Positions 9,201 through 51,220 of a stretch of 64,000 nt of DNA are shown here, one piece after another. This stretch comes from Massalongia carnosa (lineage: Eukaryota). The DNA lies in contig OZ287068.1 of the NCBI GenBank assembly GCA_965645245.1, positions 3,410,001 to 3,474,000 on the forward strand. The letters are read 5' to 3'. The notes under the pieces are model-generated. The model saw only the letters and a list, made by a program, of their open reading frames with translations, made no database searches and was not told the DNA's origin. The first letter of the stretch is position 1; each line of letters starts with the position of its first letter. Made by a program: the position numbers and the translations under genes.

Positions 9201-10551
9201 AAACAGGGGAATGGCCATCTCAACTAGGGCCTGGATTTGATTCTTGCTAGGCCAGTCTTGGGGCAATGAGCGCTGCTTGCCTATCATCCTGAGCTCATAC
9301 TCTAAGAAGAGCGTTATATCATGTTCAATTGTCTCTTTTGGTATATCGTGAAGAATCAGGTCCTGATGCGTTTCGTGTAACATTTGGTTGAAGCCAAGAC
9401 GAATGGGGAGCTCCGGTCTGCTCGTTACAAAAATCCGTAACGAAATTGGCCCAGGACACTTAGTTCGTGCGAGAAGTTGAAGGATTACTTTTATATCTTC
9501 ATCTCGCTCGCACTCGTCTAACGCGTCTATTACGATAAGTAGTCCCAATACATTTGGAGGAGCCTGCCTCAGTTCTGAGAGTGGCTGGAGGATCAACTTC
9601 TCGAACTGTTCTTTTAGAGCTTTATCGGAAATCCCTGGGTCAGCATCGATTGCTTTCGCTATGCCTGATATTAACCCTGGTTCATGAGCCATCAGATCTT
9701 TGGCGATAGTGGTGAAGAATCTGCCTGCAGTTCCCCGGTCACCCTCCCCTTTCTTGAAGAAAAAGCTTGCGCCAAGCTGACGTTCATCGGCAAATAGCCG
9801 GGCAACAGTCCGTGCAATCGTAGACTTTCCAGTGCCAGCCATACCGTTCAACCAGAATATGGGTTTGCCATACCCGTCCTTCGCCCATTCCTTAATTTGA
9901 CGCTGCAGCTCCACTCTAGTATTTGCAAGGCATCTTGCACTGTGCTCCTCCATGTGCGAGTCGAATGACGCTCCATTAGCGACCGGCAGTTTGGCGAAGT
10001 CGATCTTCTGATGAAGGTTGTCGGTCTTCTTGTCAACAAGGTTCATCTTCTGATCAACGTCTAGCATGATGCCCCTACATAGCTTATCAGTAACCCTCGT
10101 CCGCAACAAGACTCAGGAGCTCAGGGACTCACGTTTGGTCCGTTTGGAGTGCTAGATTGTAGGTCTGCTCGTATCTTTCAAGACTAGCGACAAGCTTTTC
10201 CATGTTCTCGCTCGTAAAAGGCCATTGCAAAGATCGAACCCCAAACCTGCTCATGGCCTTGCGAGTCTTCCCGAACTTCAGCTGCGAATTCAGCTCTTCT
10301 AGCTGCTCAAAGCAGTCTTTGAGCGAGCCCGTTAACTTGTGGGTAGTCAAAAGCCGCGTTTTGTCCCGTCCATCCAATAGCTTCTTGACTTCTTCGAGGA
10401 CGTGTTTGATGTCGCTAACCTTCCTTTGAAGGCGTTCGATGTCCTTCTTCGCATTCTTGACGGCGGCTGAATACTGCAAACAGAGCGAGGTGATTTTAGC
10501 GGATATGTCGATGATAGCGATGACACTTGCTGCTCCCGAAAGGCCATCCAT
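6213..10551 (-). CDS. Fungal NLR (HET-E/NWD-like): HeLo-like N-terminal domain + NACHT + WD40 repeats; 3 exons (10551-10133, 10074-8436, 8381-6213), ~1408 aa
   Basis: N-term MDGLSGAASVIAIIDISAKI...; RCLANTR, Walker A GMAGTGKST, ASFFFKKG, Walker B LLIVIDALDEC, IFVTSRPE, LFIFAAT, HLSFRDFL, YACRYWAHH, APLQLYSSALIFAP. Introns GTGAGT..TAG (58 nt) and GTAAAG..TAG (54 nt) join the frames with no stops. Confidence 0.95.
6525..8162 (-). repeat. 13 tandem 126-bp (42-aa) WD40 repeats with high internal conservation
   Basis: Unit TLEGHSxxxxxVAFSPDGQLIASASxDNTIRLWDAGTGSCRS; 1638 bp = 13 x 126. Confidence 0.97.
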
Positions 10552-13070
10552 AATGCGAGGCTTAGCGGAGGTGCTGGGTTTGACGATAAACGTGCAGTAG
10601 CACACTCGTGTACACACACTACTGAGAAGGTAAGCCAGCGCGGCTGACACCTGGAGTTGCTGGCAGCATTTCATTGGGGTGGGGTTCGACTTTACATTCA
10701 TTCGCTCGTTTCTTCTTCGGCGCTGATCACGCGCAGACTTCGGCTAATAACAGTCCGGCGGTTGGCAAATTTTACATCATGTTTCACCATCGCCGTCCGC
10801 TATTCGATTCAATCCTGTATTGGTTTTACAATACGGTTTCTAGATCTGCCAGATCGCTTCGGAGTAAAGGATATATCCTCTTGCCAGGTCGAATTTATCG
10901 GTGAGCCCTTGACCCAGTGCGAACAGGCCGATCAAGTCCCTGTGGTTGGTTGACTTCACCGCTCGGATTCTACCTTTAGTCGCTTCGTGATAGGCCTCTG
11001 GGAAAGCATTCCATATGCTCTGGGCGATTGCGCAGTCGATCCAAATATGTTCAGTGATTTATAGTTCATCATTCAGAAGACATCGCTACTCTTCTTCGAT
11101 TAGTCAAGTTAAAGCTTCATTAGTTTGGACTACATTTGGTAGTCATTTAGTAGAAGTCGATAGAGCAAGTCATTGGCCTTGAATACTCTTTAGGCGCGCC
11201 CAATGGCCTTCCATAGCTCCAAAGCTCATGCTACTCGATTTAATCCTTCCCGACACAACTTTCGCGATGCCGTCTTTCAGCGATAAGTCCCGAACCTTCT
11301 CCGTTATGACCTTATAAGCACATCGATAGGAGACCTGCTGCAGGCCTTTCCACTCTTTCATGCCAGCTCCTGGTTATTCTCTCGTTATTCGCTTCATACT
11401 TCGGTGCTGAAATTGTATCTTGTTGGGCGCTCACGCGGAGACTACGTCGCCGGGAGCGTTGTTCAAGAAATCGATTCAATCCGCCGGTAGCCCCTTCATT
11501 TAAGGTGAGCACTGTCTTTTCCCCGGATCCTCTCTGTGCCGTTGTTGTCAAAAGTCCTTGAAATTTTGGTGATGAGGTCGTAGTTATCACCTATTATTCT
11601 GATTTCTTCGTACTCTTCAGAGGCTAATCGCCCTCATATATCTGAGGATGAGACGCCAATGCCTCGACTTCTCAGACGGCGGGGCCTCTCTCAGACAGTC
11701 GCGGGAAGTACCAAAGATTAATATTCAACATCTCTCTCGCCATTGTCAGCTCTACAAATGTTGAAAGTTCTATTAAGGTGAATTGATCACTTGAATGCAT
11801 GATACGAATATTTAGAAGGAATAGTTCTTCTGTTTATCATCGGCAGAAATTTTACCTAAACTCCTAGGAATGCAAGCTAGCCTAATCGAGATAATCGCAG
11901 TCATCAACTGCCTGACCACAATCTAGTTAGGCTAACATAGACTAACATCAACAGGTTCGTGATTGAAGCTTCCGGGTTGTTCGCCTAGTTGCTGTCATCA
12001 CAATGCTCAAATATGCGTCAGGCTAGGAGTATTCATAACGTTTTGCCCGGCGTGATTAAACTATTGCTTTCCGATATCAGCGTCATTTCCGCCCGCAAGT
12101 GCCGTGTTTGTGTATTTCTCATGAAAATGATAGTGAACTTCACTTACGAAAGATATGAGCGTTTTTCCATCTTCATCATTCAAGGAATGACTGAGACTGC
12201 CTCAACAGAGTCTAAATCTTGAGTTGTCAGCTCCCTCTCGGTCGTTTGATAGACGAAGGTTCTTGATCAAATGGGCGTAGTTTTCTTCACATATCAGTTT
12301 TTACTATAACTCTTCAATGATTTCCAAGTTCTTCTTTAATATCAATAGGTGAGACCAGCGTATCACGAAATGAACATTAAAATCGTTGCCGTCACTCATG
12401 TTCGCGCTCTTTGAGACAATCGAGTCTTGATCCACCCGTTGACCTTTCCTCGCAGTTCTTTAATCATCAGTCCTCAAAACCCAGCTATTGACCCTGTGAT
12501 GTTCACTCCTATCCCATATGCTTAATTCCACTTTAGGTACGGTAGAATATAACTGTTAGGGACTAAATTTACTTAAGCGGCATACATACATGTCATCTGG
12601 GGGGGTACGGTGGAATAATATTCAAGGGTAGGGTGCCATTTCGCGCCCTGGGCCGATTTACTTGCTTCGAGCGGCCAGTAATAGCCCGGATTCGAAATAT
12701 TAACATATGGGAAGGAAAAATATCCGATCATATTGTGATTTTATAAAAATCGCGGCGCAAAGGGTGTTTGAAGAGGTTTTGCCTATTCAAAGAACAGGAA
12801 CATCAAGACCCGAGGCCGAAGAACATCAGCAGATGATGAGTACCGTGAGAAATATTGTATATATAAACTTTACAGTTTCGTGCGGCGATTCCGAATCTGT
12901 AAGAATTAACCTGGTCGCATGAATATCAAGCTGTAAAGCCAATAAAACAATTTAGCTTCATTGAACATAAGATCCCGCTTGCGCGCACTTTGCGGATAAG
13001 CGGGAACCCACAAATTGATCCACGCAACGAAAATTTTTCCCCCGAGTTAGCAGTTGTCATCATCATCATC

Positions 13071-14180
13071 ATGAGCGCATTACCCATTGAGTATTTGAGC
13101 GAGTGGCGAATGATCGTGTGTCGCAAATATCAACATACTATTTGGCCCGCTCAGGTGCAGTCCCATTTTCAAGGCCCACAGCATCGCCTGAAAATCAAAG
13201 AAGCCCCACCCATCGCGGGACGGCGCAATCATGGCCCAATTCAATTCAATATCGTTGAATTACAGATCCCCATTCGAATCGATAGTCCCGTCCGTATTTT
13301 GCCAGTGTATTCCGATGGTTTATTATGTCAAATGAAACCGGAACGATGTCAATACATTTGTCGCAATGAACACGGCATGAGAATGCATAGCAAGCAAAAT
13401 CATGGATGGACGGCGCAAGCGCGAAAGGGAAGACCCAGTAAGATTTCCACCATAAACCCGACTCCCAAGCCATGGCGAACCGTCACATGTCAGCGGTTTT
13501 TCGTTTATGGTCAAGGATCACATTTTATAGAGAGAGTTAATGTAGGATCGGCATGAAGAACGACTGCAAGAGCTGGAGTTAGTTTGCAAAGTCAAGCGCG
13601 ACAGACCATTAGTCAGGCTATGACGGCAGTCAAAGAGAAAGAACGCAGGATGATCCAGGAGGGAGAGCAGACGGAGGTGAACCAATGATTGGAGAGAACT
13701 GGGTTTTTGTGCGCATGGAAGCAGTGCGCAAAGACAACAGCAGCCAGGAATACACGCCGTTGCAACCATAGATGGACAACCAATCAATCCAAGATCACAG
13801 TCGGCCATGGAAGCAGGTGTTGATGTTTTTTGCCTGTGCGCGGCCTCAAGGCAGCAAGAGTAACCCGCCATATCGATTTATCCCAGCCCAGAAACGAGCA
13901 TGGAGACGATTTTGTACCGCCATGAAAGGGCCTAGGAAGAAAATGAGTCAGTCGAGGAAGTCGAATCAAAATCGTCAGCGGTGCAAATCCCAGATGTTGA
14001 AGAGACAGACCGCCCCATACATAAAGACGCCGGACTGAGTCGGGTCGATGAATTTTGTTTGGATTTTTGCGTTGCGTTGTTGGATCAACGAATTAAACGC
14101 ACCGAATGCGACAGCCATTGGTGAACGCTTTGGCAGTGTTGAGAGTGGACGAGGATCGATTGTTAGGACCCGATCGATAC
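13071..14180 (+). pseudogene. Degenerate DUF3505/OrsD-like protein fragment (N-terminus of the large fungal RecQ-linked multicopy proteins)
   Basis: EYLSEWRMIVCRK..IWP..VQSHF...H, GLLC...CQYIC...MRMHSKQNHGW, WRTVTCQRFF, then EVNQ*LERTG and FCLDFCVALLDQ..PLVNALAVL in shifted frames; truncated by the Gypsy LTR. Confidence 0.6.
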
Positions 14181-22251: not shown

Positions 22252-25200
22252 GATGATGATGAGGATTGATTCTTGTACCGATCTGACACTGGCCGAAGGC
22301 CGGCCCATGCGGGCTATCTACTTATTCTTACAGGGAAAACCTTTTAGAGGGATAAAAACCATGCCGACTGCGCCATTATCCCAAACGTGTTCCGTTTCTG
22401 GACTGTATTCTTCGCTCGATGTTCTGTGAAATCCTTGACAAAATGAGAGTTATCACTCGTATAACAGTTGCGATGCTAGTGAAAATTGGGTCAGCAAATT
22501 TGCTTTTATTATCCATGTGGTTAGTTTTTTCAACATTTTCGACGAGCTCATGATTGTTCGATAGTCGTTGGTGCCTATTTGTTTTAGCACTTCGTATCTG
22601 CCGTCGATTAGCCTGCAATGTAGAATGATGTGTTTGGCTATCTGCTTCTGCCATCCACACGAGCAGGCCGGGTTCATAACGCCCGGTACCCGACGATTGA
22701 ACAGGAAGTTTGCTAAGCCTATTTTTTCGGTGCTGATTTGCGTGGTTAGCGCGCTTTCCGCTTTCATCAGGTCGTTGTGAATCTTCAGTCTCGTCCTACT
22801 GAGAGATCCCAACTGTGCCTCTGTCGGGCGGGGAATACGGTTCTGGTACGTCTTCCATTTGGAGTCCCAGCGTTCCTTGATGCGTTCTGTGGTGGCCTTT
22901 GTGTGTTTCTCTATGGTATGGCGTGTCGTGGTGCATTTTTCGAGGTGCGCCGGGTCGGGTGTGGACCAGGGCGGGGGCGATGGGGGCATTGTGACTGGTG
23001 CCTCGTTATTCAACATTTTGCTGGCCCATTCGTATTTCAACTCTCCTGGGGTGAGGTGTTGCGTTCTTTTGCGTCCTGCCTTACCCCGTAGCTTGTTCGC
23101 TATTGTGTTGCAGGCTTTGGAAATCAGTTTCGCTTGCCCTGCGGCCAGTAGACGATACCTTGCTTTTATCTGTAGATTGTCCAGATGCAACTTCATGGGG
23201 GCGATGAACGTTTCCGCTTCAAGAACTTGGACGGGTGTTGCCTTGAACGCACCTGTCACGGTGCGTAAGCATTTGTTCTGTATGACGATGAGTTTGGACG
23301 TCGTGGCCTTGTTTTTCTTGATTTCCCTGGGTGTGTGCCACACGGTGCTTCCATAAGTCATTGCCGGGCGAACGACGGCGGTGTAAACCTGCTGGGCCTT
23401 CGCGAAAGAAGCTCCCCAGGTGGATGTCGAAATTTTGTGAGCGCCAACGACTGCGACGTCATCTTTTCCTGTGTTTTCTGTATGTGGGCTCCCCATTTCA
23501 ATTTGGTGTCGATTTGGAGGCCCAGAACTCGTATGTCCGTTTTCGGTTCTATTAGGTTGTTTTCCATTTGAATAGTAGCCGACATGTCGAATTTCTTTGG
23601 ATTTCTGGACAAATGAGTGAGCTCATACTTATCCGGTGCATATACGGACTCGTGGCGTGCCGCCCATAGTTCGCATTTTCTGTGAATTCTTTCGAGGGTT
23701 GTGCAGTTTTCTTCCGTGCTCTTGCCGTATGCCAACACATTTTACGTCGTCTACAAATCCTAGCGCGCTCGTGTTTGTGCCGGGTCTCTCGCATATCTCT
23801 ACAATGTCCGCATTGTAGAACAGGTAGAGAATAGGGGAAATGGGTGAGCCTTGAGAAATGCCCGTGCGCACCGTGAACTCCTCGGTTACTCGGCGGTTTA
23901 TCGTTAGCGTGGTTCTTCTTTCCTTCAGAAAGCTTGCCGTCCAGTCTGTGATCCATTTCGGGATTTTCCTTTTTCGCAGATTGTGTATCAGCCTGCGATG
24001 AGACACTGTGTCGAATGCGCCTGCTACATCCATGCTGAAGAGAGTTGCCACCCTGTTGTTGCCTTGTCCACATACAGTGTGTACCTGTTCGGTGAGGAGT
24101 TCGAGCGCAGACTCGGTAGATCGGCCACGCCGAGCGCCCATTTGTGTGTCCGGCAGGAGCCGGTGCTGTTCCGCTAAGAGTGATCTTCCTTGCGATGACT
24201 GCTTCTAATACCTTACCCATTGTGTTCAGTAAAGCTATGGGTCTGTATGCCTTTGAACTGGTATTGTATTTCTTTCCCGGTTTTCTGAGCGCGATCGTGT
24301 TTGCTCTTTTGAACTCGCGGGGATGATACGCATGCGTGACGCAAGCCTGAAATAAAGGGGTTAGCAACTCTGCTAGCTTTGTGGAGCATGCCTTGAGAAT
24401 TCGGTTGGTGATCCCGTCAGGGCTTGGAGCCTTGTCGGACTTAAGACGTTGTATGTTTGCGATCACTTCGTCATTTGTGATTGTCATGGGGCAATCCGCG
24501 GCGGCGGAGTAGAACGACCCGGGTATGTCGCTCAAGTCGGCCGGCGGGGGGGGGGGAAGAATTTGGCTTTCAGCATTTCCGCTTTTTCTTCGAACGTCTC
24601 CACTGTTTGCCCTTCGTGCCTCAATGGCGACATTTTTGGTATCTCGCGGGGCTTCTGACTCTTGTCTTTTGCCCATCTTGCTAGCTTCCATATGCCCAAC
24701 GGCGACTCGGTGGCTTTGCTTATCTCTTTGCGAAATTAGAGCGTTTTTACTTTTTGGATTATCTATTGCTTCTTGTCGTTTGACTTCATATATGCCTTCC
24801 AGTCGTCTAAGTGGCGCGATGACGACCAGAAGCGGCGCAATTTCCGAGTCTCGCGGGTGGCGCGGTTGCATTCTTCGTTCCAAAAGGGTTTCGCATATTC
24901 GCTGGGTCTGGCCCAGGGGACGGAGGCGGTTATGATTTTCTGCAGGAATTCTTGAATTGTCTGAGGGTACTGATCTATTTCTGCGATTGAGCGGGGGTGG
25001 GTTACGGGCGGGGCGTTGCTTTCAGCCTCCCTCAATTTCTCCATGTTCAGCAGCTTCCATGCTCTGCGCTTTACTTTCGTTAGCTGTTCACCCCCGAGAA
25101 GAATGCGAATGGATATCGGAATGTGATCAGAGGATTGATTCATTTCCGGTCTTGACATGCAGTGTTCCAGTCTTTCCGCCAGAAATTCCGACATGAATAC

Positions 25201-27420
25201 TAGATCTATAGTGCTAAAAGAGTTCCGGGCCTCCCACGTGACGGTTTATTTGGGCAGCGTCAATGAGAGGTCAAATTCTTCTACTATATTCAATAACTGA
25301 TCTGCGGCTACGTGTTGTGTTGGCCTTGTGATTCCATTCCAAAAGGGGTGGTGAAGATTGAAGTCGCCGAGAAGAACGTGCTGTGCGTCTGCGGCAAGCT
25401 GCTGGCGTACGACGGGGAGTGTGGACGGGCTTTCTGTGGATGAATAAGAGGACGGGGACGGGTTGTACACGTTATAAATGTGCAGCACTTTCGTAACCCC
25501 ATCGGTACACATGTTCAATTTCAACGTGCATAGATCTGCGGTAGGGAATTCTACTTCCCAGCTTTCCGGGTCTATTTTCTCGTTAACGTAAAAACATACG
25601 CGTGTTTCACCGCCGGGACGATACAGGAGGTGAAATTCGCTTTGATGTGAGCTGAGCGTTGTGGGAGCGTTGCGTGCTCCGCCACGGTTCCTGTATTGCT
25701 ATAACATCGTAGTCCTGCGTGTTTAAATCTGCTAAAAGTGGAATCATTGTGCTTACTCGATCATTTCTGACGTTGTACTGTAGTATGTTAATGGAGTTTG
25801 TGTCCTTCATAAATCTCCTTCTTCCATTACGTCCGTTGCCGGGGCGGTGGGGTGGTCCGATTCTGGGTCGGCGGGAGAGGGAGATGATTCAGGGGTCGGC
25901 GGGGGGGGGCGGGATCCGTGCGGGACGGGGCGGGTGTTGCTGCGGTTGGTGTGTTTGGTGGTCTGCCAAGAGTGGGCTTTGCCATCGCTCTTTGCATGTT
26001 CATGGGTTTCATGATCTCCGTGTCCTTCCATGACATGCCCGCTACGCGGCTGGGACCTGCCGAGGTCACTTCTTGGGAACCCGCTGGGGCGGTTTTCCTT
26101 TCTTGCTGGTGACGACCTTCCAGGCACCGTTGACGGGTCTCTCCGTTGCCTCCCCTGGTGTTGCGCTGCATTCCTTGTCCGTTGAGGTTTGAGACGAGAA
26201 GATGAATGACCGTGCTACGATCGGGTCGCCCGTGACGAAGAGCTGGGGTGAGCTTTTCCTGGCCTTCTCTATCTTGCTCATTTCTAGTAATCTGAGTTTG
26301 CATGTTGGGACCCACGCTACGTGGCCTCTCTCCTCGCAGCATGCGCACCTTATGTGTTTACCTGTTGTTTCTGGGTTGCATTCGTTGGTCGAGTGCCCGC
26401 CGGCGCAGAGCCCGCACGCCGTTGGGTTGCGGCAGCGTTTTCCTATGTGTCCATATTTATAGCAGTTGAAGCACTGCGTTAGCTTGCAACTTTTTCCGAA
26501 TTTTTCGCAATTCTTAATCTCATGATCGACGAGGAAGCCCACGGTGATGAGGCGTTTCGCCATCGCGGGAGTCTCTACTTCTACATGCAGCGACGAGTAT
26601 GTCTTCTTTTCTTTGATGGCCCTGAACGGCCAGGCGATTCTCGTGATTTTTAGGCCTGAGTGTAATGGTGCGTTAGCTGCCTGCAGGTACTGAATGGTTT
26701 GATTCTGATTGGTGGCATCGATATGTGCCATCTTTACTCCGCTAGCTCGTACTGCATAGGTGCGGCGTTGGACTGTAGCAGACGCCGCAATCGCGGTGAT
26801 CCATTCAGTGTTTTCATGTAGGGTCTTCTTGACCTCTGCTGATTCTGCGTGAATTCATATGTCTCCGCTTGTAAGTCGCGATATTCCCACTATCCCTTCG
26901 ACGTTTTTCTGCAGCGATTCCACCAACTCCTGAGTGGGCATCTGTCTCACTCTTTCTCGATCGGCCTCGTTCGTGACTCGTAGTGTGATCTCCCGGGCCC
27001 TTTTGGCCTCGCTGGGGGATGGCTTTTTGGTTTTTTGGGGTTTTGGGTGCTTAAGATTGTACGTCGGGCTTTGCCCGGCCTGGTTCTGGGGCGCCAGCGG
27101 GGTGGCCGCGGCGGCGTAGCTTGTGGGGGGATCGTTATTCTTTTTGCTGCCTTCCATGCGATTAAGTGCGTTTCTTATGTCCCGTAGGGACTCTTCTACC
27201 GTGACGGTGTCTTCGTTTTCCGAATTAATGTGAAGCTAGGCTTGCAATGTGGCTTTAACCTCCTTCAACAGAGTTTGCACCACCGGGTCTCCTACGCTGT
27301 TACCAGGCTTTAAGTACTCATCTATCTTTGCTCCCAAGAGCTTTATCTTCTCCTCCTGCTCCTTCTTGCGTTTCTCGCGGTCTTGTGCGAGTGTGTTGAT
27401 CATTTTCGAAGTTTTTTCGA
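22252..27420 (-). mobile_element. Tad1-like LINE, near full length, degenerate (ORF1 ~27403-25810; ORF2 25810-22453)
   Basis: ORF1 zinc knuckles QCFNCYKYGH/CGLCAGGH/CACCEERGH; APE motifs ILQYNV, IAIQEPW, LLGDFNLHHP, SSDH; RT YRPIALLNT, MDVAGAFD, QGSPISP, GFVDD; C-terminal CSCG..HIILHC; (ATC)n tail. Many frameshifts; 5' end approximate. Confidence 0.93.
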
Positions 27421-27917
27421 CTATCTCCCGAGTTTATTCAACAACAACGGGAATTATAAGAAGAACGCGATGCAACAAGTCAGAAGTATATATTTATTAA
27501 ATTTATTAATGCATCGTATAAATCTGAATATAAAATTCATCGTCGATTTTAATCAATCGTTATTAAATCAAAATTTATTTACAAAGAAGAAAAGAATTAT
27601 CGTGCGCGACTCGTTAAAAATATCTTCATTGAATGTCGTGTTAATCTACGCTGTTACGGTGCGAGGGCGTGTAGTAATTCAGATGGTGCAAACGTTGTAG
27701 AGGGGTGGAGTGGAACTCCACCGGGTCGGTGGCAAGTGAGGTGATGAGTCAGGTGATTGGTCATGTGGTCGGGTGCTGGCGTCTTGGCGTTCCGTTTATA
27801 TGAGTCTTTTTCTCAAACTTTCCTTCTCATCTTTCGGGATATCCATCTTCGGATCATACTGCTATCAACACATACAGCTATCATAGACACTTTCATTCAT
27901 ACAGCTAGTCGGCCATT

Positions 27918-28947
27918 TGTAATGGGCTACGAGACCAGTAAGCTTATCACGAGCGACACTGATCTCGAAAAGGGAAATGCTCAGCGTGAGAGGAGGAAGA
28001 TAGCTACTACGTGCTAGTCTCCGAGAGTATATGTGATCCAAAGAACTAATGGATGTGGAAGTGCTTGGACCAAGAGATCTCGTCCGAGACCCAAACGTAG
28101 GTTGTTCATAGAATAAAGACTAATTGCTAACGAATACTACAAGATTCGTTCTGATATTTATCCTACTCACCCCAAGCCTATAGCCTTGGGAGCCTTGGAA
28201 CCTTAGGAGCCTTGCAAGCCTTGGGAGTCTTGCGAGCATTACAGCCTTGCAATCCACATCCGACTTTATCGCATTACATCCAACCATCCCTCAGGATCCA
28301 TCCACGAACTCGGCGTTCGCTGGATCATCTAGTCAGCCTCGAGCAGCCTTCTAGATCTTCCCTTGCAAGGTAGAACAGTTCTACCCCCGGCTAGATCCCT
28401 CACTACATGCTTCAGGCTATGTAGCTTCATTTCGCCGTCACCACTACCTAGTGATGGAAGGTTACCTCCGACTGAATACCTCGCTACACTGCGGACCTGC
28501 CTCTAGACACAAGGTCTAGACAACGAGGTCATGTAGGTTCATTCAGCCGACATCACTACCAACGTAGTAATAAAGGTTGAAGCTGAAGTTTACACCGGGG
28601 AGCCTAGCTCAAGCTGCGTCCAGCGAGCCGTGCCTCCTGCTACCTCTCTTGATCCATCAAGAGATCCAGTAGCTCCGAGTAGGCCAGTAGATCCCATATA
28701 GAGTTCCTTGGCGTCTCCACAGGAGTCCGCCTTACACTCCATGGCAATCTACCACCACGGCCTCGATAGGTGTTTGATCTGTAAGTAGTTAAGAACGTGA
28801 TAACAATAACTCCGAAGTTTCGGGGTAAGATGGCAGTGTGTCAGCCTCGACGGCTTATGCGACTTCGTACTACGGCATGGTCCACGCTAGTTAATCCCGC
28901 AACCGCCATAGGCGATCACGTATCCCTCTAGCGCCATCCGTATTACA
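27918..28947. mobile_element. Solo LTR, 1030 bp (family A, copy 2)
   Basis: TGTAAT...ATTACA; TSD CCATT (27913-27917 / 28948-28952). Confidence 0.93.
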
Positions 28948-29557: not shown

Positions 29558-30395
29558 TATAGATATAATAGCATGACTACCACCACAGAACGCATCAAGG
29601 AACGCTGGGACTCCAAATGGAAGACGTACCAGAACCGCATTCCCCGAGGCACAGTTGGGATCTCTCAGTAGGACGAGACTGAAGATTCACAGCAAATCCG
29701 CACCGAAAAAATAGGCTTGGGAAACTTCCTGTTCGATCATCGGGTACCGGGCGTTATGGACCCCGGCCTGCTCGTGCGGATGGCAGAAGCAGACAGCAAA
29801 ACACATTATTCTACATTGCAGGTTAATCGACGGCAGATACGAAGTGCTAAAAAAAATAGGCACCAACGACTATCGAACGATCATGAACTCGTCGAAAATG
29901 TTGAAAAAACTAACCACATGGATAATAAAAGCAAATTTGCTGACCCAATTTTCACTAGCATCGCAACTGTTATACGAGTGATAACTCTCATTTTGTCAAG
30001 GATTTCACAGAACATCGAGCGAAGAATGCAGTCCAGAAACGGAACACGTTTGGGATAATGGCGCAGTCTGCATGGTTTTTATCCCTTTAAAAGGTTTTCC
30101 CTGTAAGAATAAGTAGATAGCCCGCATGGGCCGGCCTTCGGCCGGTGTCAGATCGGTACAAGAATCAATCATCATCATCATAATAGCATAACTGTCATTG
30201 AATGTATGGATTATATGTGAGCTTTCTACTCATTATATAGCAGTCACATTGAAGACCTTTCGATGACCTTTTTCATAAGAAGTCAGCCGGTTCACTGAAT
30301 TTCGGCCCCCGGAGGTCACTCCGGTCCCCTTGGTAGAGTCGCCGAAGATTAGCACTAGATGAATGCCTATGATGATAGTCCTTTACCATCTAACA
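29558..30395. mobile_element. Solo LTR (~220 bp, family B) split by a truncated LINE
   Basis: 29558-29578 plus 30194-30395 match 48185-48407 (TATAATAGCATGA..TCATTGAA...ACCATCTAACA); terminal TG appears mutated to TA; no TSD found. Confidence 0.65.
29579..30179 (+). mobile_element. 5'-truncated Tad1-like LINE (same family as 22252-27420)
   Basis: Highly similar to the reverse complement of ~22252-22900; (ATC)n tail; TSD ATAATAGCAT(G/A)ACT at 29565-29578 / 30180-30193. Confidence 0.92.
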
Positions 30396-30411: not shown

Positions 30412-31812
30412 CTAAACCAAAGACCAGCCTGAATGCATGAAGAAGTCGAGGGCTAGTGTATGAGCCCACAAGCCAGCCTCGTCCACTAGTACAAAAAAAC
30501 CCCCAATCCGTCCATCTTCATCCACAATCGGCGCACCACATATGCCTTCCTTGACTTGGGCTCCAATTGTGCCAAACAGAGAAAATGCTGTCTCGATGCG
30601 CCAATCTTTATATGCCACGGGAAGTGAGATCGAGCTTGTAGGCGTTGGGTTATACCAGGATCTGCCGCGCGCACATAAATCAACTCTTCCGGTCGACATG
30701 CCATCTACCTCAAACCAATCACCAGCCCTTATTTCTTCAATGGATATTAGACGTGATGGTACAGGTGCAGCAAAATATCGCCTGTTGGAAAAGGATATCG
30801 ATGGATCTAACTGCACTAACGCTATATCCCATGCTGGAAAGCGCTGAACTATTTGGCCAATTCGTCGTCCAGTTGGCGATGGATGGTATACTTCATCTGA
30901 CGTAGGGAAACCATGGCAAGCTGATGTCATGAGTCTCGCTCCACCGTTTTGGACGAGAACACCGGCTGATGTACTAAGCCACTGCGACGTTATAGAACCG
31001 TTACGGCTTAGATAGGCAGACGATAGGCAGACTCCTGGTGACAACTCGTGTGGGTCGTTGTAGAGGTAATCCGAAACGTCAGCGATCAAATTGGTAGGAG
31101 TAGTGAGTCTCTCGTATGCTTTTTGGGAAGATCCTTTCCAGTAATCTTCAATGCTTTCGTGGTAGAGAATAGGTAGTCCGCCTGCCATGGGCGGAAGTGA
31201 TTGCTTATCGTACGTTCTTCCGCTGGCAACATCCAGTTCCACGATGATTTGCGGGGGCATAAAATGTATTGCTCGAATATCCACTTCGGATGAGAGTAAT
31301 TTGATCACCTCCATCGACTGCTGATGAGTTGGGATTTCGAACTTCGGTAGAGAGTACGATACAATATCATCTCTCTTTTTGGTACCGTAGGGCCGTAATG
31401 AGCCGTAAGGTAAACTGAGGAGGTGAAGATCTTGAGGAATAAAACGAGCAAGTGCGCAAGCTACAGTTAGAGGGATGTGCGAGGGGGGCTGGCTTGTCCT
31501 AATAATAATATCTGGAAAATCGACATGAACAGCGAACGCCTTATATTTCCCAATTATCCATTCAATCTCAACATGAGATGGGTCACGAAACTCTTCAATA
31601 TTACCATCCCATAGGCTGAATGGGGCATCATCCAAGTTGTGTCGACTCCCAAAGCCTGGAGTTTTGATGGTAAAGGGTTTGTGTCGTTGAGACTCTGGCT
31701 GTTCGTGAGGTAGGGTCGGTGGCACGGGAGGGTTTTCTGAAGAGGTTGGATTGGGTGCATATGCTGGCTTAAGAGTAGAAATCTTTACCGGGGATTGTCG
31801 TAATACGATCAT
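30412..31812 (-). CDS. Intronless 466-aa protein, putative chymotrypsin-fold protease with His-Asp-Cys triad
   Basis: Uninterrupted ORF. C-terminal half: LSPGVCLS, SAGVLV...LMTSACHGF (His), WDIALVQL (Asp), VDGMSTG, EGICGAPIVDEDGRIGG (Cys at the GxSG position). Family assignment by motif only. Confidence 0.7.
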   Translation of the reverse strand: MIVLRQSPVKISTLKPAYAPNPTSSENPPVPPTLPHEQPESQRHKPFTIKTPGFGSRHNLDDAPFSLWDGNIEEFRDPSHVEIEWIIGKYKAFAVHVDFPDIIIRTSQPPSHIPLTVACALARFIPQDLHLLSLPYGSLRPYGTKKRDDIVSYSLPKFEIPTHQQSMEVIKLLSSEVDIRAIHFMPPQIIVELDVASGRTYDKQSLPPMAGGLPILYHESIEDYWKGSSQKAYERLTTPTNLIADVSDYLYNDPHELSPGVCLSSAYLSRNGSITSQWLSTSAGVLVQNGGARLMTSACHGFPTSDEVYHPSPTGRRIGQIVQRFPAWDIALVQLDPSISFSNRRYFAAPVPSRLISIEEIRAGDWFEVDGMSTGRVDLCARGRSWYNPTPTSSISLPVAYKDWRIETAFSLFGTIGAQVKEGICGAPIVDEDGRIGGFFVLVDEAGLWAHTLALDFFMHSGWSLV

Positions 31813-32213: not shown

Positions 32214-32539
32214 TAGGCCGAGATGGAGGCCCTCAAGCAGTATAAAGAGACGATGCTTCCTCATGTAATTTAGCTATTCAGTCGTTCAGAATTCAGTTCA
32301 GCAGATAGCTAAATTTGGAGTATCTTCACTGGAAATACGGAGTACCTGCATCACGTTTGCCAAGCACTTCTCTTTGCCTATCCTTGAAAGCCCTAGACCC
32401 TCTTCTCCTGCATCCCGCTGCCGTATGCCTGGTTGATTTTTTGTTCAACAAGAGGATTTATTATGTGTTGAATGTTCAAATTCTACCAGCACAACAGATT
32501 AGATTAGATCAGATCCAGTCTAACCGTATCGGTTACTTA

Positions 32540-35170: not shown

Positions 35171-38100
35171 TATCACCTATCTTAATCAGACTTTCAATAA
35201 ACAGAACGCCTCAAAAGTCTCGATATTGGTAGTTACAGACCTCGGAAAAATCTTATTCCATTTGACAGGCCCGGCCTGTTAAATAGATCGGTAGAGCCAT
35301 GGTTCAGAACGCCCCTATCTTCATACCACCAAGTGAAAGTTCCACCATTGAGTGAAAGTCTTTCATGAGGGTAAAAGCGTTGTGGCAAATAAGGAACAAC
35401 ACAGTTTGATGTCGCAGAGAGGGATCGTAACTTAGATATTTATCAAAAAATCACAGAAGTTTACTTAGACACCTCTTTTCATCATGTCTCTCCCAGATAC
35501 CATCAGTTCCACAGAGAAGTCCTATCTTCTAGAGAAGGCAGAGCACTATTCGGCATGGGTTAGCTACAACAGAGGAGTTCTGCTGAAGAACAACTGCGAT
35601 ACAGCCACATTGGAGACCCAACCAGATGTTACACTTGATTCCATCCGACAGAGCCTCATCGACTCAGGCATCACTCAAGCCAGTCTTACTACCAGCATCC
35701 TTGTCAAAGAACTTCGGGATGACATGAACAGACAGAAGACTGCGATGACCAAGGCTATTGGAATCATACACGGACTGGTTGCGCCATGCCATTTCAACCT
35801 CATCAACAACAAAACTGCTGCCGAGATGTGGGCAACCCTGAAGACTAGATTCCAGGACGTAGCACCAATGAGCATCATGGATGTCATCTTGAGGGTCAGT
35901 GCAAAAAGGATGAGAGGTTTTGAAACCGTAGGTCAATACTGTGCAGAGTATGACGGTGCTTTCAATCAGATCAAGGGCATGTTGGTCGACGGAGCCAAGG
36001 TGAACATAGCCTCCATAGAGTTTGTGCTACAGGGCATGCTACTTGGTAACACTACAGACATGTATGATCCACTCATTGCACAACTCCGCAGGGACTGGAC
36101 ACATGACACCACAAGTCTCTCAGAAACCACAAAGACCCTCATTGCATATGCAGGCAACAACACAGACGTCAAGGCCCTTCATACTAGCACTAGCACTTCA
36201 TCCAACAGAGGCAGAGCACCTATAGGAAGTTGTACTGTTCCAGAGTGCGTAGCAAGGAATAGAACTCGCCACTGGCCAAATGAGTGCTTTTCAGAAGTTT
36301 CCTCATCTGAAGAGAGCGAGAGACGTAGCTGATTCAGGGAGGGCAAAAAGGGCCAAGTCCTCCAAGCCAGAAACAACGGCTGTTCCAGACTCCTCGGCCA
36401 CAGAACCCCCTACACTGAACAGTTGTCTCACACTGGTCATGACCACAGTAATATAGAAGGTCATGGCCATGACAAACTTAGACCAAGACACGTAGCTCCT
36501 TGACAGCGCCGCAGACATGCACGTATGTAATCACAGATCATCTTTTATTGATTACGTAGTACGTCCAACAGCTCTGGCGGGATCTACTTCGGAAGGAATG
36601 TCTCCAGGAAGGGGAGTTATCGAGAGAACGTTGACACTACAGGACGACTCACCCTCGCCAGTGTTAAATCTTACACAACGTACTGCTCATTCCACAGTGT
36701 CCAGTGAACCTTATCAGCCTGGCACTACTCAATCGTCATGACATCTACTATGACAATCTGAACTGGACCCTATTCCTCCAATCCAGTGGAAGGGTCATAG
36801 GGTATGTCCTAAGAGTCAACACCAAATTCATAGTAAAGATCTTGGATACCCCAGAAGTGGCTGTACGTCTCACACAGATAGATGATTAAACTTTTCAATG
36901 GCTGTTGATCATACATTTAACAGAGCCTTGGTCATCTGAACATAACTGCTTGTCGCACTTATCTAAAGCGACTCGATGTACCTTACTCGGACAATGTCAG
37001 CAAGGATTGGCACTGTCCATCCTGTGAACTCAGAAAGGCTACAAAGATATACAACAGAACACCTCAGGAGAGAGCTACAGGCATCTTTCAAAAGGTTCAT
37101 TCAGACCTGGTCGGACCCATCAAACCGGCGTGACTTCTCGTGGAAATCTACTTCTTCACCTTCACCTGTGACGCCAGCAGATACACACATGTGTATACCG
37201 GCATCAAGAAGAGCGAGTGGTTCGATCATCTGTGAACATATGACAGCCTGGCTCAGAAAAAGACAGGAAAGAGCAAATCAATGAGCATCTTTCGCACCGA
37301 AAATGGCACCGAACTCCGAAGTCTGAAATCGGACGACTGGTTTCTGAAGGAAGGGATAACGTTTGAACCCTCAGCACCACATTCACAGGAACAGAACGGA
37401 ATGTCCGAAAGAACAGGCAGGACCATCATGGACATGACTAGGTGTACCATCATCGAAGGAGGCATTCCGGACTATTTATGGACAGAGGTAGTTCTAGCTA
37501 TGGTTCATACCAAGAACGTCAGACCTACAAACGCTTTATCTAGAAAGAGCCCCTTTGAAATTTATGAGTCAAAGCCATTTTCTTTAAATCATCTGAGAGT
37601 TTTGGGATCTACTGTATGAATTCTCTTTCATAGAGAAGAACGAGTAGGAGCAAATAGCAAATCGGTCAAATTCTCACCTCGGGCCCAGCGTGGCATTCTA
37701 TGTGGATATGACGGATGCACCATTTCTCGAGTTTTCTTGGAAAAGGACTACAGGGTCATCAGGGTCAAAGATCTGCGCATTCATGAAGTCGCCATCTCCA
37801 AAGACCAGACCAACGTTCCTACGTATGATGCCATCATGGCACCCGATACAAACATCCTATCAGAACCAGTTGTCATTTCACCTCCCACTTCAACTCCTAA
37901 ACGTGGACGAGGTAGACCCAGAAATTATATTCATGTGAAGCACATATTGTCTCTGCTCTCCGACAAAGCTTTAGTTAGACCAGACCATGTCCATACATCT
38001 GAAGACAGACATGCAGAGGACCCACTTGTTCTATTAGCCAGAACCCCTATGCAAGAAGGCAGTCTATTCAGAAATGAATCTCAGGCCTCAGAATCAGACA

Positions 38101-39103
38101 TTAAGCAATATCAAGCCATAGTAGGGTCCATCATGTTTGCCATCATAGAGACACGGCCAGATATAGCCTTTGCAACCTCAGTGGTTAGCAGACATGCCAA
38201 AAACCCAGGCAAAACACATATGGAAGCAGCCAAACACATACTTCGATACCTCAGTGCCACCAAAGACAGAGGTATCACCTTTGGTGGAGGAGATATGTCT
38301 GTACAGGGCTATTCCAATTCCTACTGAGCCGGAGACAAGGAAGACAGCAAGTCCACCTCCGGATATGTCTTTATGTTAAACAACGCACCAATCAGTTGGT
38401 GTTCCAGAAGACAACAAACCGTCGCACTCTCATCCACAGAAGCAGAATATATGGCACTCACCTTGGCTGCTAAGGAGACCATATGGATACGCTTATTGAT
38501 GACTAAGCTCGGCCTGATGCAAGATGATGCTTCTCCGACAGTGAATGTACTTGAAAGGGAAGGCGCTATAGCACTGAAGGGTGATAATCAGAGTGCTATA
38601 GCACTGGCCAACAATCCTGTCTTACATTCAAGGACTAAACACATCGATATTCAGCACCACTTCATTCGAAATGAAGTCACAGAGGGCCGGATAGACCTTA
38701 CATATGTCCCAACTTACCTACTCATCACGCAACAGATTCGACCACCTACAGACCTCATCTGACGGACAAGTACTGATAGAACTTGAGGGAGGGTGTTGAG
38801 TTAAATATTCAAATTCTAGCAGCACAACAGATTAGATTAGATCAGATCCAGTCTAACCGTATCGGTTATTTAAGAGCTTTAGCGTAAGCAACCTTAGGCT
38901 CGGATAAACTATTATCACTTTGCTTAGTAGAGGGTGACCACTTAAAAGGAGAAGACTGCTTCATAGCAACTCTTTATCTTATACATCAGGGTCCTAAACA
39001 TTGTCATTTATTACATAGCCATATAGTCATAATTATATTCCTATTTCAACATTATGCAAGATAATAAAAAGTAAAAGTAATATAAGTATTATTAAATCGT
39101 GAT

Positions 39104-42753: not shown

Positions 42754-45700
42754 ACGTAATTCACCGCTATTCGGAACACCCGCTTATTCGTAACTAACAA
42801 ATTTGATACCAACCTTCGTAATTTATTATCTCCGCCCATCCACAAAACTTCCAGCACATGTACTCGGGAATTGATGAACAGATTCTAGAGAATATATGTA
42901 GCTAGCATAAGCTTGTAGAGCTACAATTTACGAGTGTTACGAATGACACGACCGCGCGAGCTAACCCGAACCTCTAAAACTTCCTCCTTCTCCCCCTTTC
43001 CGACAATTTCCACATCACCCTGTGCCAACTCAGTGGTATTTTTCATTCTTGATATACATTTTCCTTTATTCAGAGCAGTTTTTTAAAACCCTAGGTCACC
43101 CTCAACTGTCTCCTCAAAAATATGAGGTGTAATCTGAAGAAGGTCGTGAAAAGCGTTTTGAAGGATAGAATCGTCTCGTTTCTTATTTTTAGGTTAAGAT
43201 CGAGATTTTACGGAATCAGGCCCGTATATCAGGTCGGGTCCAAGTCGCATAAGGTTTTTAGATACCTAAGAAAATAGTCGATCGTTCTGTTTTTCTTTCC
43301 TTACCTGTGATCTAGCCTCTTTCTCCTTTTTCTTATTTTCAGCTAGTTGTTGTAATGGGCTACAAGACCAGTAAGCTAATCACGAGCGACACTGATCTCG
43401 AAAGGGGAAATGCTCAGCGTGAGAGGTGGAAGATAGCTACTACGTGCTGGTCTCCGAGAGTATACGTGATCCAAAGAACTAATGGATGTGGAAGTGATTA
43501 GACCAAGAGATCTCGTCCGAGACCCAAACGTAGGTTGTTCATAGAATAAAGACTAATTGCTAACGAGTACTACAGGATTCGTTCTGGTATTTATCCTACT
43601 CACCCTAAGCCTATAGCCTTGGGAGCCTTGGAACCTTAGGAGCCTTGCAACCCACTTCTGACCTTATCGCCTTACATCCAACCATCCCTCAGGATTCATC
43701 TACGAACTCGGCGTTCGCTGGATCATCTAGTCAGCCTCGAGCAGCCTTCTAGATCTTCCCTTGCAAGGTAGAACACTTCTACCTCCGGCTAGATCCCTCG
43801 CTACATTGCTAGCCTGACTCTAAACATAAAGTCTAGACGCCGAGGCTATGTAGCTTCATTTCGCCGTCACCACTACCAACGTAGCGATGGAAGGTTACCT
43901 CTGACTGAATCTCTATCTACACTGCGGACCTGCCTCTAGACACAAGGTCTAGACCACAAGGTCATGTAGGTTGATTCAGCCGACATCACTACCAACGTAG
44001 CAATAAAGGTTGAAGCTGAAGTTTACACCGGGGAGGCCGAGCTCAAGCTGCGTCCAGCTAGCCGTGCCTCCTGCTACAACTCTTGATCCATCAAGAGATC
44101 GAGTAGCTCCGAGTAGGCCAGTAGATTCCATATAGAGTTCACGGCTAGTCTCCACAGGAGTTCGCCTTACTCCATGGCAATCTACCACCACGGCCTCGAC
44201 AGGTGTTTGATCTGTAAGCAGTCTAGAACGTAGTAACAACTAATTCGGAGTTGTGTGGCAAGGTGGCGTCGTGTCAGCCTCGATGGCTATGCGACTAAGT
44301 ACTACGGCCTGGCTCATGCTAGTTAATCCCGCAACCGCCGTAGGCGATCACGTATCCCTCTAGCGCCATGTCTTCTTTTCTCTACATCTTCTAAACTCAA
44401 TAAGCGAGCCCCTTGACCATCGTATTGAGTGCCCGTACGTTGAGCTCGTTGTTTTTTTCGTGTATTGGCTGCTAAAAGCTCCGTATTAGTACGATTCAAG
44501 ACAATACGATCAGCCATAGCAAGTCTAGCTGCTTTAAGGGTTTTTGGTAGAAGAGTAAGCTTAGGGGAATCGAGAGTCTGATGGCGAAATAGTAATATAA
44601 GCTCCTCAACCTCTGAGACTTGTTCTATGTTTCCTGGTGTTGGTGGTATTCGGCCTGAAAGATAACGCGTTTGAATAGGAGTACTAGCGTCAGGTAGAGT
44701 GTCATCGTTCGTATGAGGCTTAGCTGATATTTTGTCAAAGAAAGCGGAAGGATTGTATGGAATAAGTCCAGTAGCTCGCCATGTTGATTGTATATTTCGA
44801 GCAGTGATACCCTGTTGCCTAGCTTTTTGTATTAAAGAAATGAAATCAGCCTTGTCGATATTGTAGGTTGTAAACCGTGTTTTCTCAGCTAGCAACGTTT
44901 TATAGTTTTGTTTTAAAGGGTCAAATACCCCAATATCAAGAGGCTGTAATAAGTGTGTTGAGTGTGCTGATAGACATAGACAAACTATTTTATGTTCCCG
45001 GGTAAATCGGATAAATTCAGTCGACACATGAGATGCATGCCCGTCAACAATTAACATTCGATATTCACCACGGAGGTAAGCTCTTGTTGTTGGCTCAAAA
45101 CAGTCACGCATCCACTTCATACAGAGCTTGTTATCAGTCCAGCCGTTTTCACTTAGTGAAACACGAGCACCCGGTTCCATATTACTAGGATGCCAATCAT
45201 CTTTCCATCTCTTACCCTTTAAAATAACAAATAACGGTAATCGACGACCAGTGGTACCAATAGCTTCAATGAGGGACGCCCATTCCCGATTACCAGCTTG
45301 ATTAATAAATGCCTGTTTCCGTTATTTTGAAAATACCACCTTTGAACTCCACGCAATACCCATCATATAACCGTTTTCATCCATGTTGTGTGCATCCTCG
45401 TCCAATATACCATGTTGGGCCTTAATAGACAGATACAGATCGAACCACTGCTGTATTGAATCCCGATTTTGAGCTAAATACCGTTCTTGATCAAGCGTAC
45501 GGCTATATTTCGACTGTAGTATAGGATGACGGTTGAGGAATTTTTCTGACCAGTTTTTGCCCAGTTCTTTAAAATCCTGTTTGGCTCGTAATATTTCTTC
45601 TGCCATTTCGCGTAACTGCGCTATTCTAGGCGGAAATCCCCAAGACTGAAGTTGTAGCACCCAACTCTGAAGAGATCCTTCCTCCTCGGGCGTTAACCTC

Positions 45701-50518: not shown

Positions 50519-51220
50519 CTAGGTTCGGGTGAAAAGTATTGACGGATTAAGCGAGAAAATCAAAATCGATATTTCAATCACCTCCACAATCAAAAATACT
50601 AAACCTTCAATTCAACACGATAATTTCTACAATTGATGTCGAAGTCAGATGTGTGTATGAAGTAGTTGATCTGAAACTTTGAAGCATGTTTTACACTCAA
50701 TATTTGGTGGAAAAACCATGATTTTTAATCACAGCCCGACAACGATCTCGCATCGTGTTGATCCATTTCAGATGCTTATTTTCCACCACTAACCCGTTCC
50801 ATTCGTTCGTTCCTGCTATGAATATGTCTTTTGCATTCGTGACTAAACGAGGATATCGTTTGATCTTCTGCTTGCAGCCCCTCCACATGTACTCGATGGG
50901 ATTGAGATCAGGACTCGAAGGGGGCCAGGTCATGACCTCTATCTGATGTTGTCGTAGCCACAAACGAGCCTCTTTGGAATCGTGAATGCTCGCATTGTCT
51001 TGCATGAAGATGGGACGGTGGCCTTGTGCTTTGAGAGCTTCGTACCAAGGAAAAAGGCATGGTTCCAAGATCTGATTGATGTAATCAGTAATTTCATCTT
51101 CTTCAAAGTCTTCTTAAACTCCACCAATTCGCTGGCCTGCTGTCCACATATGCCTCCCCAAAACATGACTGACTGTCGAAACGAATCCTTCCTATCCCGT
51201 AACCAACAAACATCCACAAA
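50519..51220 (-). mobile_element. Tc1-like (DD34E) transposon 3' fragment
   Basis: SVMFWGGI, FMQDNASIH...WPPSSPDLNPIEYMW (34 residues between D and E); abuts a TA at 50517-50518. Confidence 0.88.

Follow-up and report, generated by a model that had tools for sequence, protein, structure and literature searches.

Clan PA is a textbook case of one peptidase fold that employs either serine or cysteine as the nucleophile, and to our knowledge all of the cysteine-type families placed by MEROPS in subclan PA(C) are viral. Cysteine-type PA proteases are treated as viral in PMC9647873 and PMC7674412, and work on the directed evolution of TEV protease has addressed how the nucleophile can be exchanged without a dead intermediate and discusses switches within the clan (PMC4576821). 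NAL1 of rice (NARROW LEAF 1) is an intracellular trypsin-like serine protease with the triad H234/D291/S385, and has an extra β-strand 11 between His and Asp that is required for the hexamer (PMC12012508). Here, we examined a gene in a 64,000-nucleotide stretch of the Massalongia carnosa genome (GenBank assembly GCA_965645245.1, contig OZ287068.1, positions 3,410,001 to 3,474,000 of the forward strand), the whole of which is referred to as the window. The encoded protein, P0001, is predicted to have the chymotrypsin fold of clan PA with a cysteine as the nucleophile, and it belongs to a family of uncharacterised proteins whose named members are from ascomycetes.

P0001 is encoded on the minus strand by one open reading frame (ORF) spanning 30412..31812, which opens with ATG and has zero internal stops. 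The first-pass annotation had reported an intact, stop-free ORF of 466 aa with three protease-like motifs, and the ORF listing and the translation agree with this: TSACHG lies at residues 296–301, WDIALVQL at 328–335, and EGICGAPIV at 422–430, with the Cys of the last motif encoded by TGT at 30538–30540. Three further strings, IPLTVACALARF, LPPMAGGLPILYHE and LSPGVCLS, are at residues 113–124, 206–219 and 257–264, respectively. The start of P0001 agrees with that of its homologues (for example, MIVTRNSPVKISL in P0011 and in the metagenome locus L004), and the protein is colinear with them from end to end; hence the gene is intronless and full length. P0001 contains five Cys residues in total. 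A hydropathy scan revealed no signal peptide or transmembrane segment, the top 19-residue Kyte-Doolittle mean being 1.17 and the N-terminus having no hydrophobic core, in keeping with the earlier remark that a signal peptide is absent. P0001 is probably located in the cytoplasm.

An AlphaFold2 model of P0001, built from the 45-sequence alignment described below, had a mean predicted local distance difference test score (pLDDT) of 88.6 and a predicted template-modelling (TM) score (pTM) of 0.89, with only residues 25–29 and 32–41 below 50. Comparison of the model with the Protein Data Bank (PDB) using Foldseek gave 414 chains at E≤0.001. The top match was rice NAL1 (E 1.4e-8 to 9e-8, 389–419 columns, 12–14% identity), followed by Lysobacter L5 and L1, alpha-lytic protease and related S1E proteases (E 1e-7 to 6e-6, target TM 0.62–0.70), and HtrA1 was matched at E 6.9e-6 with a target TM of 0.56. 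The top Foldseek chains were re-aligned with VIA-align, and all 50 entries listed have Z≥12.8 (representative entries are given in Table 1). The clan PA fold that the first-pass annotation had proposed is supported by the model: in VIA-align, residues 255–466 superpose on S1E proteases with Z 17.0–17.7 and a root-mean-square deviation (rmsd) of 2.3–2.7 Å over 171–174 of 185–198 residues. This segment is therefore predicted to form a compact chymotrypsin-fold domain.

The secondary-structure setting of the presumed catalytic residues His300 and Asp329 in the model is like that in other members of the fold. By a simple offset from the ends of the alignment, His300 would occupy the position of H234 in NAL1. 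In sub-significant PDB profile alignments, Cys425 faces the nucleophilic Cys of TEV NIa (KDGQCGSPLV) and the Ser of dengue NS3 (GTSGSPIV), and in non-significant hhalign alignments with DegP, DegQ and DegS, Asp329 faces the Asp of SDIALIQI and Cys425 the Ser of GNSGGALV. The named neighbours of P0001 in a protein language-model search all belong to clan PA (Trypsin, Trypsin_2, Nal1_C, S64 and S55), and neighbour clusters carry Nal1_C on 16–27% of their members, which is taken as a lead only.

NAL1 (PDB 8HAU, 8PMG and 7Y77) is the best whole-protein structural match to P0001. Both proteins are without a signal peptide, NAL1 being intracellular and P0001 probably so, and both carry N-terminal non-protease domains before the chymotrypsin fold. 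The spacing from Asp to the nucleophile is 96 residues in P0001 and 94 in NAL1 (Asp291 to Ser385). In contrast, the nucleophile is Cys425 in P0001 but Ser385 in NAL1, and the His-to-Asp spacing is only 29 residues as compared with 57, which leaves no room in P0001 for β-strand 11 of NAL1. The Pfam family Nal1_C (PF25819) gave no match for P0001 at E≤10 and none for any of 45 family members at E≤1, using a Pfam copy whose inclusion of PF25819 was not verified.

The catalytic domain itself is superposed most tightly on the S1E proteases (streptogrisin B, alpha-lytic protease and Lysobacter L1/L5), with Z 16.7–17.7, rmsd 2.3–2.9 Å and 171–180 of 185–199 residues aligned. The S1E proteases share with the P0001 domain a compact double barrel of ~200 residues, and the His-to-Asp spacing of about 27 in alpha-lytic protease is near to the 29 of P0001. 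However, these bacterial enzymes are serine proteases that are secreted, contain disulfides and have their pro-regions cleaved off, whereas in P0001 the nucleophile is Cys, and a signal peptide and a conserved pattern of disulfides are both absent; identity to P0001 is 14–18%, and there is no match at the level of hidden Markov models. Proteases of the HtrA/DegP family are more distant. The Pfam model Trypsin_2 responds weakly to P0001 and HtrA2, HtrA1 and Deg9 give structural Z values of 12.8–13.7, but HtrA proteins have Ser in place of the Cys of P0001 and their PDZ domains are absent from P0001.

With the viral PA(C) proteases (picornavirus 3C, potyvirus NIa/TEV and coronavirus 3CL), P0001 shares the predicted His/Asp/Cys chemistry and the G-x-C-G motif on a chymotrypsin fold. 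Unlike them, it is the product of a single cellular gene outside any polyprotein. In the sub-significant alignment with TEV NIa, His167 of the S1 pocket lies opposite Phe440, a residue kept by ≥90% of the family; as the S1-pocket His of 3C and NIa is thus replaced, a specificity of the Gln/Glu type is not expected in P0001. No match to Pfam Peptidase_C3, C4 or C30, or to Peptidase_S64 (Ssy5, PF08192), was found in P0001 or in 45 family members. In the viral structure library BFVD, a phage S1 peptidase was the best match with a name (E 2.9e-6), and picornavirus polyproteins were found at E ~2e-5. Two unnamed or uncharacterised BFVD entries, A0A0N9MU75 (318 aa, 348 columns, E 1.3e-9) and A0A7S9XDX3 (449 aa, 430 columns, E 3.4e-6), align to the whole model and, judging from these structural alignments, may be virus-encoded two-domain NAL1-like proteases.

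A word-indexed search revealed 72 homologues of P0001 at E≤1e-3, and an exhaustive search of 1.84 billion cluster representatives matched 543 at the same threshold, of which 267 reach E≤1e-10 and 77 reach E≤1e-30; from these 543 representatives, names and residues were drawn for the best 150. The core alignment comprises 45 of 73 sequences, near-duplicates and truncated models being omitted, and for the extended count all 212 proteins were added to it. In the core alignment, the column of His300 contains His in 40/45 sequences (Gln in three, Asn in one and Arg in one), that of Asp329 contains Asp in 42/45 (Asn in two and Gly in one), and that of Cys425 contains Cys in 40/45 (Arg in three, Gly in one and one truncated). 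The corresponding figures for filled positions in the extended alignment are 147/169, 162/176 and 144/163, the remaining residues at the Cys425 column being Arg (9), Tyr (4), Leu (3), Gly (1), Ala (1) and His (1), with 49 gaps. Ser was found at none of the 163 filled nucleophile positions of the 212 proteins. The flanking Gly426 and Gly423 are present in 44/45 and 42/45 sequences, respectively, and the complete His-Asp-Cys set in 112 of the 141 proteins that span all three positions. The order His300, Asp329, Cys425 within LTxAxHGF, DIAL and GxCGAP is that of clan PA, together with its G-x-[SC]-G-x-P loop.

A scan of metagenomes with a profile of closer homologues gave 14 loci, 13 of which were analysed (L014 was left out as a partial match). 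All 13 contain intact intronless ORFs of 455–463 aa and carry H/D/C, and the nucleophile codon is TGT in the window gene and in each of them. The first-pass annotation had allowed for the Cys being a private AGT-to-TGT change; the absence of Ser from the column, the 144 Cys residues and the shared codon show that it is family-wide. The metagenome loci form two paralogue groups, 59–60% and 47–52% identical to the window protein, which co-occur in one assembly (L001 and L006). Pairwise ratios of non-synonymous to synonymous substitution rates (dN/dS; NG86 method) were 0.145–0.438 in the seven computable pairs, with the N- and C-terminal halves alike at 0.19–0.30; because synonymous sites are saturated in two pairs with the window gene, these values are given for its relatives only. 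Purifying selection acts on these relatives. The gene is intact, the family is real and its residues are conserved.

The organisms, where named among the matches listed, are ascomycetes and mostly lichen-forming ones (Umbilicaria, Psora, Acarospora, Letrouitia, Pseudocyphellaria, Peltigera, Chaenotheca, Candelina, Schaereria, Varicellaria, Icmadophila and Lepraria); members also occur in Cadophora, Pseudogymnoascus and Aspergillus coremiiformis. Every family member among the matches listed is titled "hypothetical" or "uncharacterized". No precomputed Pfam domain is attached to any match, and none was found at E≤0.01 in the 12 homologues scanned directly. The suggestion of an uncharacterised fungal family thus fits the ascomycete members, their titles and the lack of a Pfam family at threshold. 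A profile search of a set of 5.8 billion proteins contributed nothing beyond fragments, none of its additions being a distant relative or one with Ser, and a search starting from the most distant member, P0073, gave four matches. A look-up of sequencing runs found five with the sequence, from three studies, and no RNA run was among those listed. Two homologues are oversized, namely P0117 (1373 aa, family match at 828–1270) and P0134 (929 aa, match at 402–849); the remainder of each is without a Pfam domain, and either a genuine fusion or the merging of gene models may explain their length.

The genes next to family loci include an EDC4-like gene and Nup54 (L001), a carboxypeptidase S10 gene and a bZIP gene (L004), and a gene for a TPR protein (L005). 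As these neighbours are ordinary and differ between the groups, the gene is not the cargo of a mobile element and has no conserved partner. In paralogue group B (L005:1570-4035 (+), also L010 and L011), the protease homologue is preceded at a distance of ~1.9 kb, in the same orientation, by a gene for an 822-aa TPR_10/TPR_12 protein; the loci of this group are closely related, and this neighbour therefore counts as a single observation.

The N-terminal half of P0001 includes a conserved segment, PGFGSRHxxDDAPFSLWD, at residues 52–69 (invariant columns of the alignment), and two modules of a helix and three strands at 80–125 and 163–218 (DSSP of the model). The linker to the protease domain is conserved too, with Asp245 and Tyr249 in 45/45 sequences and Pro259 and Gly260 in ≥90%. 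When folded alone, the N-terminal half had a pLDDT of 82.6. It found no structural match at Z≥5 among 48,161 representative PDB chains or among 589 Foldseek top chains, and no Foldseek match at E≤0.001 (best E 0.022); NAL1 chains were not among the rows listed for it. A generic α+β unit matched it at Z 4.0–4.7, which is a lead only. Residues ~145–240 overlie the ATP-binding domain of NAL1 only in the whole-protein superposition, and since the N-terminal half alone matches nothing at Z≥5, its likeness to NAL1 is confined to that superposition. The resemblance to the N-terminal region of NAL1-like proteases noted in the first-pass annotation agrees with the comparison of the whole protein, for which NAL1 is the best structural match and is covered from ~81–90 to 444. 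The most likely role of the N-terminal half would be to control access, folding or assembly, a role that the N-terminal domains have in NAL1.

Taken together, the data favour, with a fair degree of confidence, a cytoplasmic clan PA endopeptidase that would use a His300/Asp329/Cys425 triad and a thioester intermediate, that would have descended with the NAL1/S1E branch and whose N-terminal half would serve regulation or assembly. The three residues would fill the classical triad positions, and Gly423-x-Cys425-Gly426-x-Pro428 would stand for the GDSGGP loop. The mechanism would be of the 3C/TEV type: His300, oriented by Asp329, would deprotonate the thiol of Cys425, the thiolate would attack the scissile carbonyl, and the oxyanion would be stabilised by the backbone NH groups of Gly423 and Cys425. 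A thioester acyl-enzyme would form and then be hydrolysed, with the conserved N-terminal half predicted to be packed on the protease domain. Given ancestry with the cellular serine proteases NAL1 and S1E, the Cys would reflect a switch of nucleophile within a lineage of cellular proteins. In structure, the domain is closer to these proteases than to viral 3C, and hence the "3C-like" label of the first-pass annotation is apt for the chemistry, that is, the Cys in GxCG with its predicted triad, but not for ancestry.

Several observations weigh against this interpretation. Trypsin_2, the only Pfam match of P0001, has E 0.0011 and 20.1 bits at residues 284–436, below the cutoff of 27.6 bits, and weak matches to it occur in 10/45 family members with a best E of 3e-4. 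Searches of PDB sequences (phmmer, full-length profile and C-domain profile) gave no protease at E<0.1 (E≥0.14), and hhalign of the C-domain profile against E. coli DegP, DegQ and DegS was not significant (E 0.096, probability 0.6). As no sequence method is significant against a characterised protease, the fold rests on the AlphaFold2 model. Further, 29 of the 141 members (about 21%) are missing one residue of the triad, and the small clade of the window protein (support 99) includes P0003 and P0004, which have Arg and Gly, respectively, at the Cys site and, at 77% and 71% identity, are its closest relatives besides the near-identical P0002. The state of the triad changes at least 5–7 times among the 45 sequences in a quick tree (midpoint root, support by the approximate likelihood ratio test SH-aLRT only). 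Part of the family, perhaps including the clade of P0001 itself, may be non-catalytic. Finally, His310 (45/45; 171/179) is better kept than the assigned catalytic His300 (40/45), and the gene sits in a stretch rich in transposable elements (TEs).

The repeated loss of the triad, and the full-length ORFs of P0003 and P0004 despite their lack of the Cys, are what give weight to a pseudo-protease, in which the fold would be kept for binding or scaffolding and His/Asp/Cys might act, for instance, as a substrate trap, a redox-sensing thiol or, with His310, a metal site. The invariant His310 lies outside the canonical triad, and two His, Asp and Cys are typical zinc ligands. On the other hand, 79% of the proteins retain all three residues, together with Gly423, Gly426 and Pro428 in the pattern of an active oxyanion-hole loop, and the triad is complete in both paralogue groups analysed, which evolve with dN/dS 0.15–0.44. 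We regard a pseudo-protease as unlikely, although it deserves more weight than the explanations that follow. A somewhat less likely possibility, and a special case of the endopeptidase reading, is a single-turnover self-processing protease, in which the N-terminal half would be a pro-region (foldase or inhibitor) cut in cis near residues 250–257 to release an active domain, as in alpha-lytic protease, the streptogrisins and Ssy5. In size and rmsd, the catalytic domain comes nearest to the S1E proteases, which are synthesised with a pro-region at the N-terminus. In addition, conservation of the linker is strong, and Peptidase_S64 is assigned to 15% of the members of one neighbour cluster in the language-model search. 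Chains of the alpha-lytic pro-region appear at Foldseek ranks 5, 7 and 8 for the N-terminal half, but these rows are not significant (E 0.07–0.08, TM 0.17–0.26) and such chains are not among the 50 VIA-align rows listed. Also, Pfam Pro_Al_protease and S64 have no match, and the whole protein is modelled confidently as a single unit (pTM 0.89), as is the case for NAL1, which is unprocessed.

Capture of a 3C-like protease from an RNA virus, i.e. a domesticated endogenous viral element, would account for the GxCG motif, which is characteristic of viral 3C and NIa enzymes; the best PDB profile matches at the motif, though sub-significant, are TEV NIa (E 0.66) and flavivirus NS3 (E 0.8–1.2), and picornavirus polyproteins appear in the viral fold library, as noted above. 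However, viral cysteine proteases are absent from the 50 VIA-align entries and from the Foldseek PDB matches listed, where NAL1, S1E and HtrA proteins are found instead, and the longest structural match is to plant NAL1, including a non-protease domain. The nearly invariant Phe440 opposite His167 of TEV argues against such an origin too, as do the broad, vertically diversified distribution of the family in ascomycetes and the absence of polymerase, helicase or capsid remnants beside the gene in the window, L001, L004, L005 and L013. A viral origin is accordingly considered very improbable. The TE-rich neighbourhood could also suggest a decaying or chance ORF in a graveyard of such elements, with a private AGT-to-TGT change, but the chance of this is practically nil: it is refuted by the full length of the gene, by end-to-end homologues, by a family-wide Cys without Ser, and by relatives that are under purifying selection beside ordinary genes. 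The endopeptidase reading is preferred to all of these.

Table 1. Features of the protease gene and its flanks in the window, and selected structural alignments of the P0001 model.
Feature	Location	Strand	Description or basis
CDS, complete, intronless	30412..31812	-	466 codons + TAG stop at 30412-30414; protein P0001
Cys425 codon TGT	30540-30538	-	Read from sequence
His300 codon CAT, predicted general base, in LTxAxHGF	30913..30915	-	Conservation; short helical turn after strand 292-297
Asp329 codon GAT, predicted triad acid, in WDIALVQL	30826..30828	-	Conservation; just before strand 330-335
G423-I-C425-G-A-P428, predicted nucleophile/oxyanion-hole motif	30529..30546	-	Conservation; sub-significant alignments
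His310 codon, in EVYHP; sole invariant His	30883..30885	-	45/45 and 171/179
Residues 1-44, Pro/Ser-rich low-complexity N-terminal tail, predicted disordered	31681..31812	-	pLDDT 45-65 over most; <50 at 25-29, 32-41
Residues 45-250, N-terminal half, predicted packed on protease domain	31063..31680	-	DSSP, pLDDT >90
Residues 255-466, predicted chymotrypsin-fold (clan PA) peptidase domain	30415..31050	-	VIA-align, Foldseek, weak Pfam Trypsin_2 match
Inverted-repeat arm (~640 nt), partner 22253-22895	29580..30181	.	92-99% complementary; ends 231 nt downstream of protease stop codon
Repeat fragment, copy at 38797-38872 (93%)	32464..32539	.	Adjoins copia-gag-bearing stretch; upstream edge of unique island
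VIA-align, NAL1	model 154-466 vs NAL1 90-444		Z 18.4, rmsd 4.6 Å, 264 residues
VIA-align, streptogrisin B	model 257-466		Z 17.7, rmsd 2.5 Å, 171/185
VIA-align, alpha-lytic protease	model 255-466		Z 17.2, rmsd 2.5 Å, 173/198
VIA-align, HtrA2	model 44-464		Z 13.7, rmsd 3.5 Å, 163/292

The surroundings of the gene in the window were earlier described as decayed TEs, and Pfam indeed finds fragments of Tc5/DDE_1 transposase, copia gag and endonuclease/reverse transcriptase of the long interspersed nuclear element (LINE) type. Tc5/DDE_1 transposase ORFs are at 2702–4282, where a Tc5/pogo-like ORF bears an HTH_Tnp_Tc5 domain, and at 44323–45321, and a copia gag fragment is at 35469–36332. Copies of repeats stop at 30181 and resume at 32464; hence the protease gene occupies a unique island of ~2.3 kb. 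The inverted repeat 22253–22895/29580–30181 brackets ~7 kb with a strong negative AT skew, inside which two long minus-strand ORFs (22453–25021 and 26066–26854) have no Pfam match; the structure is either a single large element that ends in long terminal inverted repeats or the same element present twice in opposite orientations. A direct repeat of ~1 kb is present at 27917–28937 and 43350–44369 (83–96% identical, 15.4 kb apart), the second copy adjoining the DDE_1 transposase ORF. A LINE-like retroelement at 50958–60915 (+) is split into several ORFs, with an Exo_endo_phos_2 endonuclease domain at 52970–54496 and RVT_1 at 59818–60915, and it shows a very strong positive AT skew of up to 0.37.

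Farther from the protease gene, a fungal NLR-type gene at 6213–10743 (-) encodes a NACHT/NPHP3_N domain (ORF 8421–10112) followed by a long WD40 region (ORF 6213–8381). The WD40 repeats form a tandem array of 126-nt units at 6520–8166 (13.1 copies, 94% identity), and owing to the high uniformity of the array, further long ORFs are present in a second coding-strand frame as well as on the complementary strand. We take this gene to resemble the hypervariable HET-E/D-type WD repeat NLRs of filamentous fungi. The TPR protein of group B and this NLR gene, 20 kb away in the window, give a weak hint of a link between the protease family and NLR-type genes. At 12903–13556 (+), an ORF matches OrsD (orsellinic acid/F9775 biosynthesis cluster protein D) with E 7.5e-15; it may be left over from a polyketide cluster or belong to one, and in a lichen-forming fungus this would be of interest.

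A search of the literature, in which subscription journals were largely not covered so that unpublished status is not implied, yielded no paper on NAL1-like proteins in fungi or on a cysteine protease of cellular origin with the chymotrypsin fold. Both the fold and the chemistry are known; neither the family nor the pairing of the two in a large cellular family appears to have been described. It is tentatively proposed, at a little short of an even chance, that among chymotrypsin-fold peptidases the P0001 family is the first cellular (non-viral) one with a Cys nucleophile, being ascomycete-wide, expanded in lichen-formers and related to NAL1 and S1E, in which a Ser/Cys exchange became fixed and the triad was then repeatedly lost. 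The members are at present without annotation, and the family merits an entry in Pfam and MEROPS.

If the proposal is true, the family would provide a natural example of Ser/Cys exchange, with a fixed Cys in a large cellular family that is nearest to cellular serine proteases. Its paralogues and orthologues with Arg, Gly or Tyr at the nucleophile site would serve as built-in controls, and the natural series of Cys-active and inactivated paralogues would form a new MEROPS-level family in subclan PA(C). An unannotated intracellular protease would be added to ascomycetes, including Pseudogymnoascus and an Aspergillus, and the NAL1-type architecture, hitherto studied in plants, would be extended to fungi.

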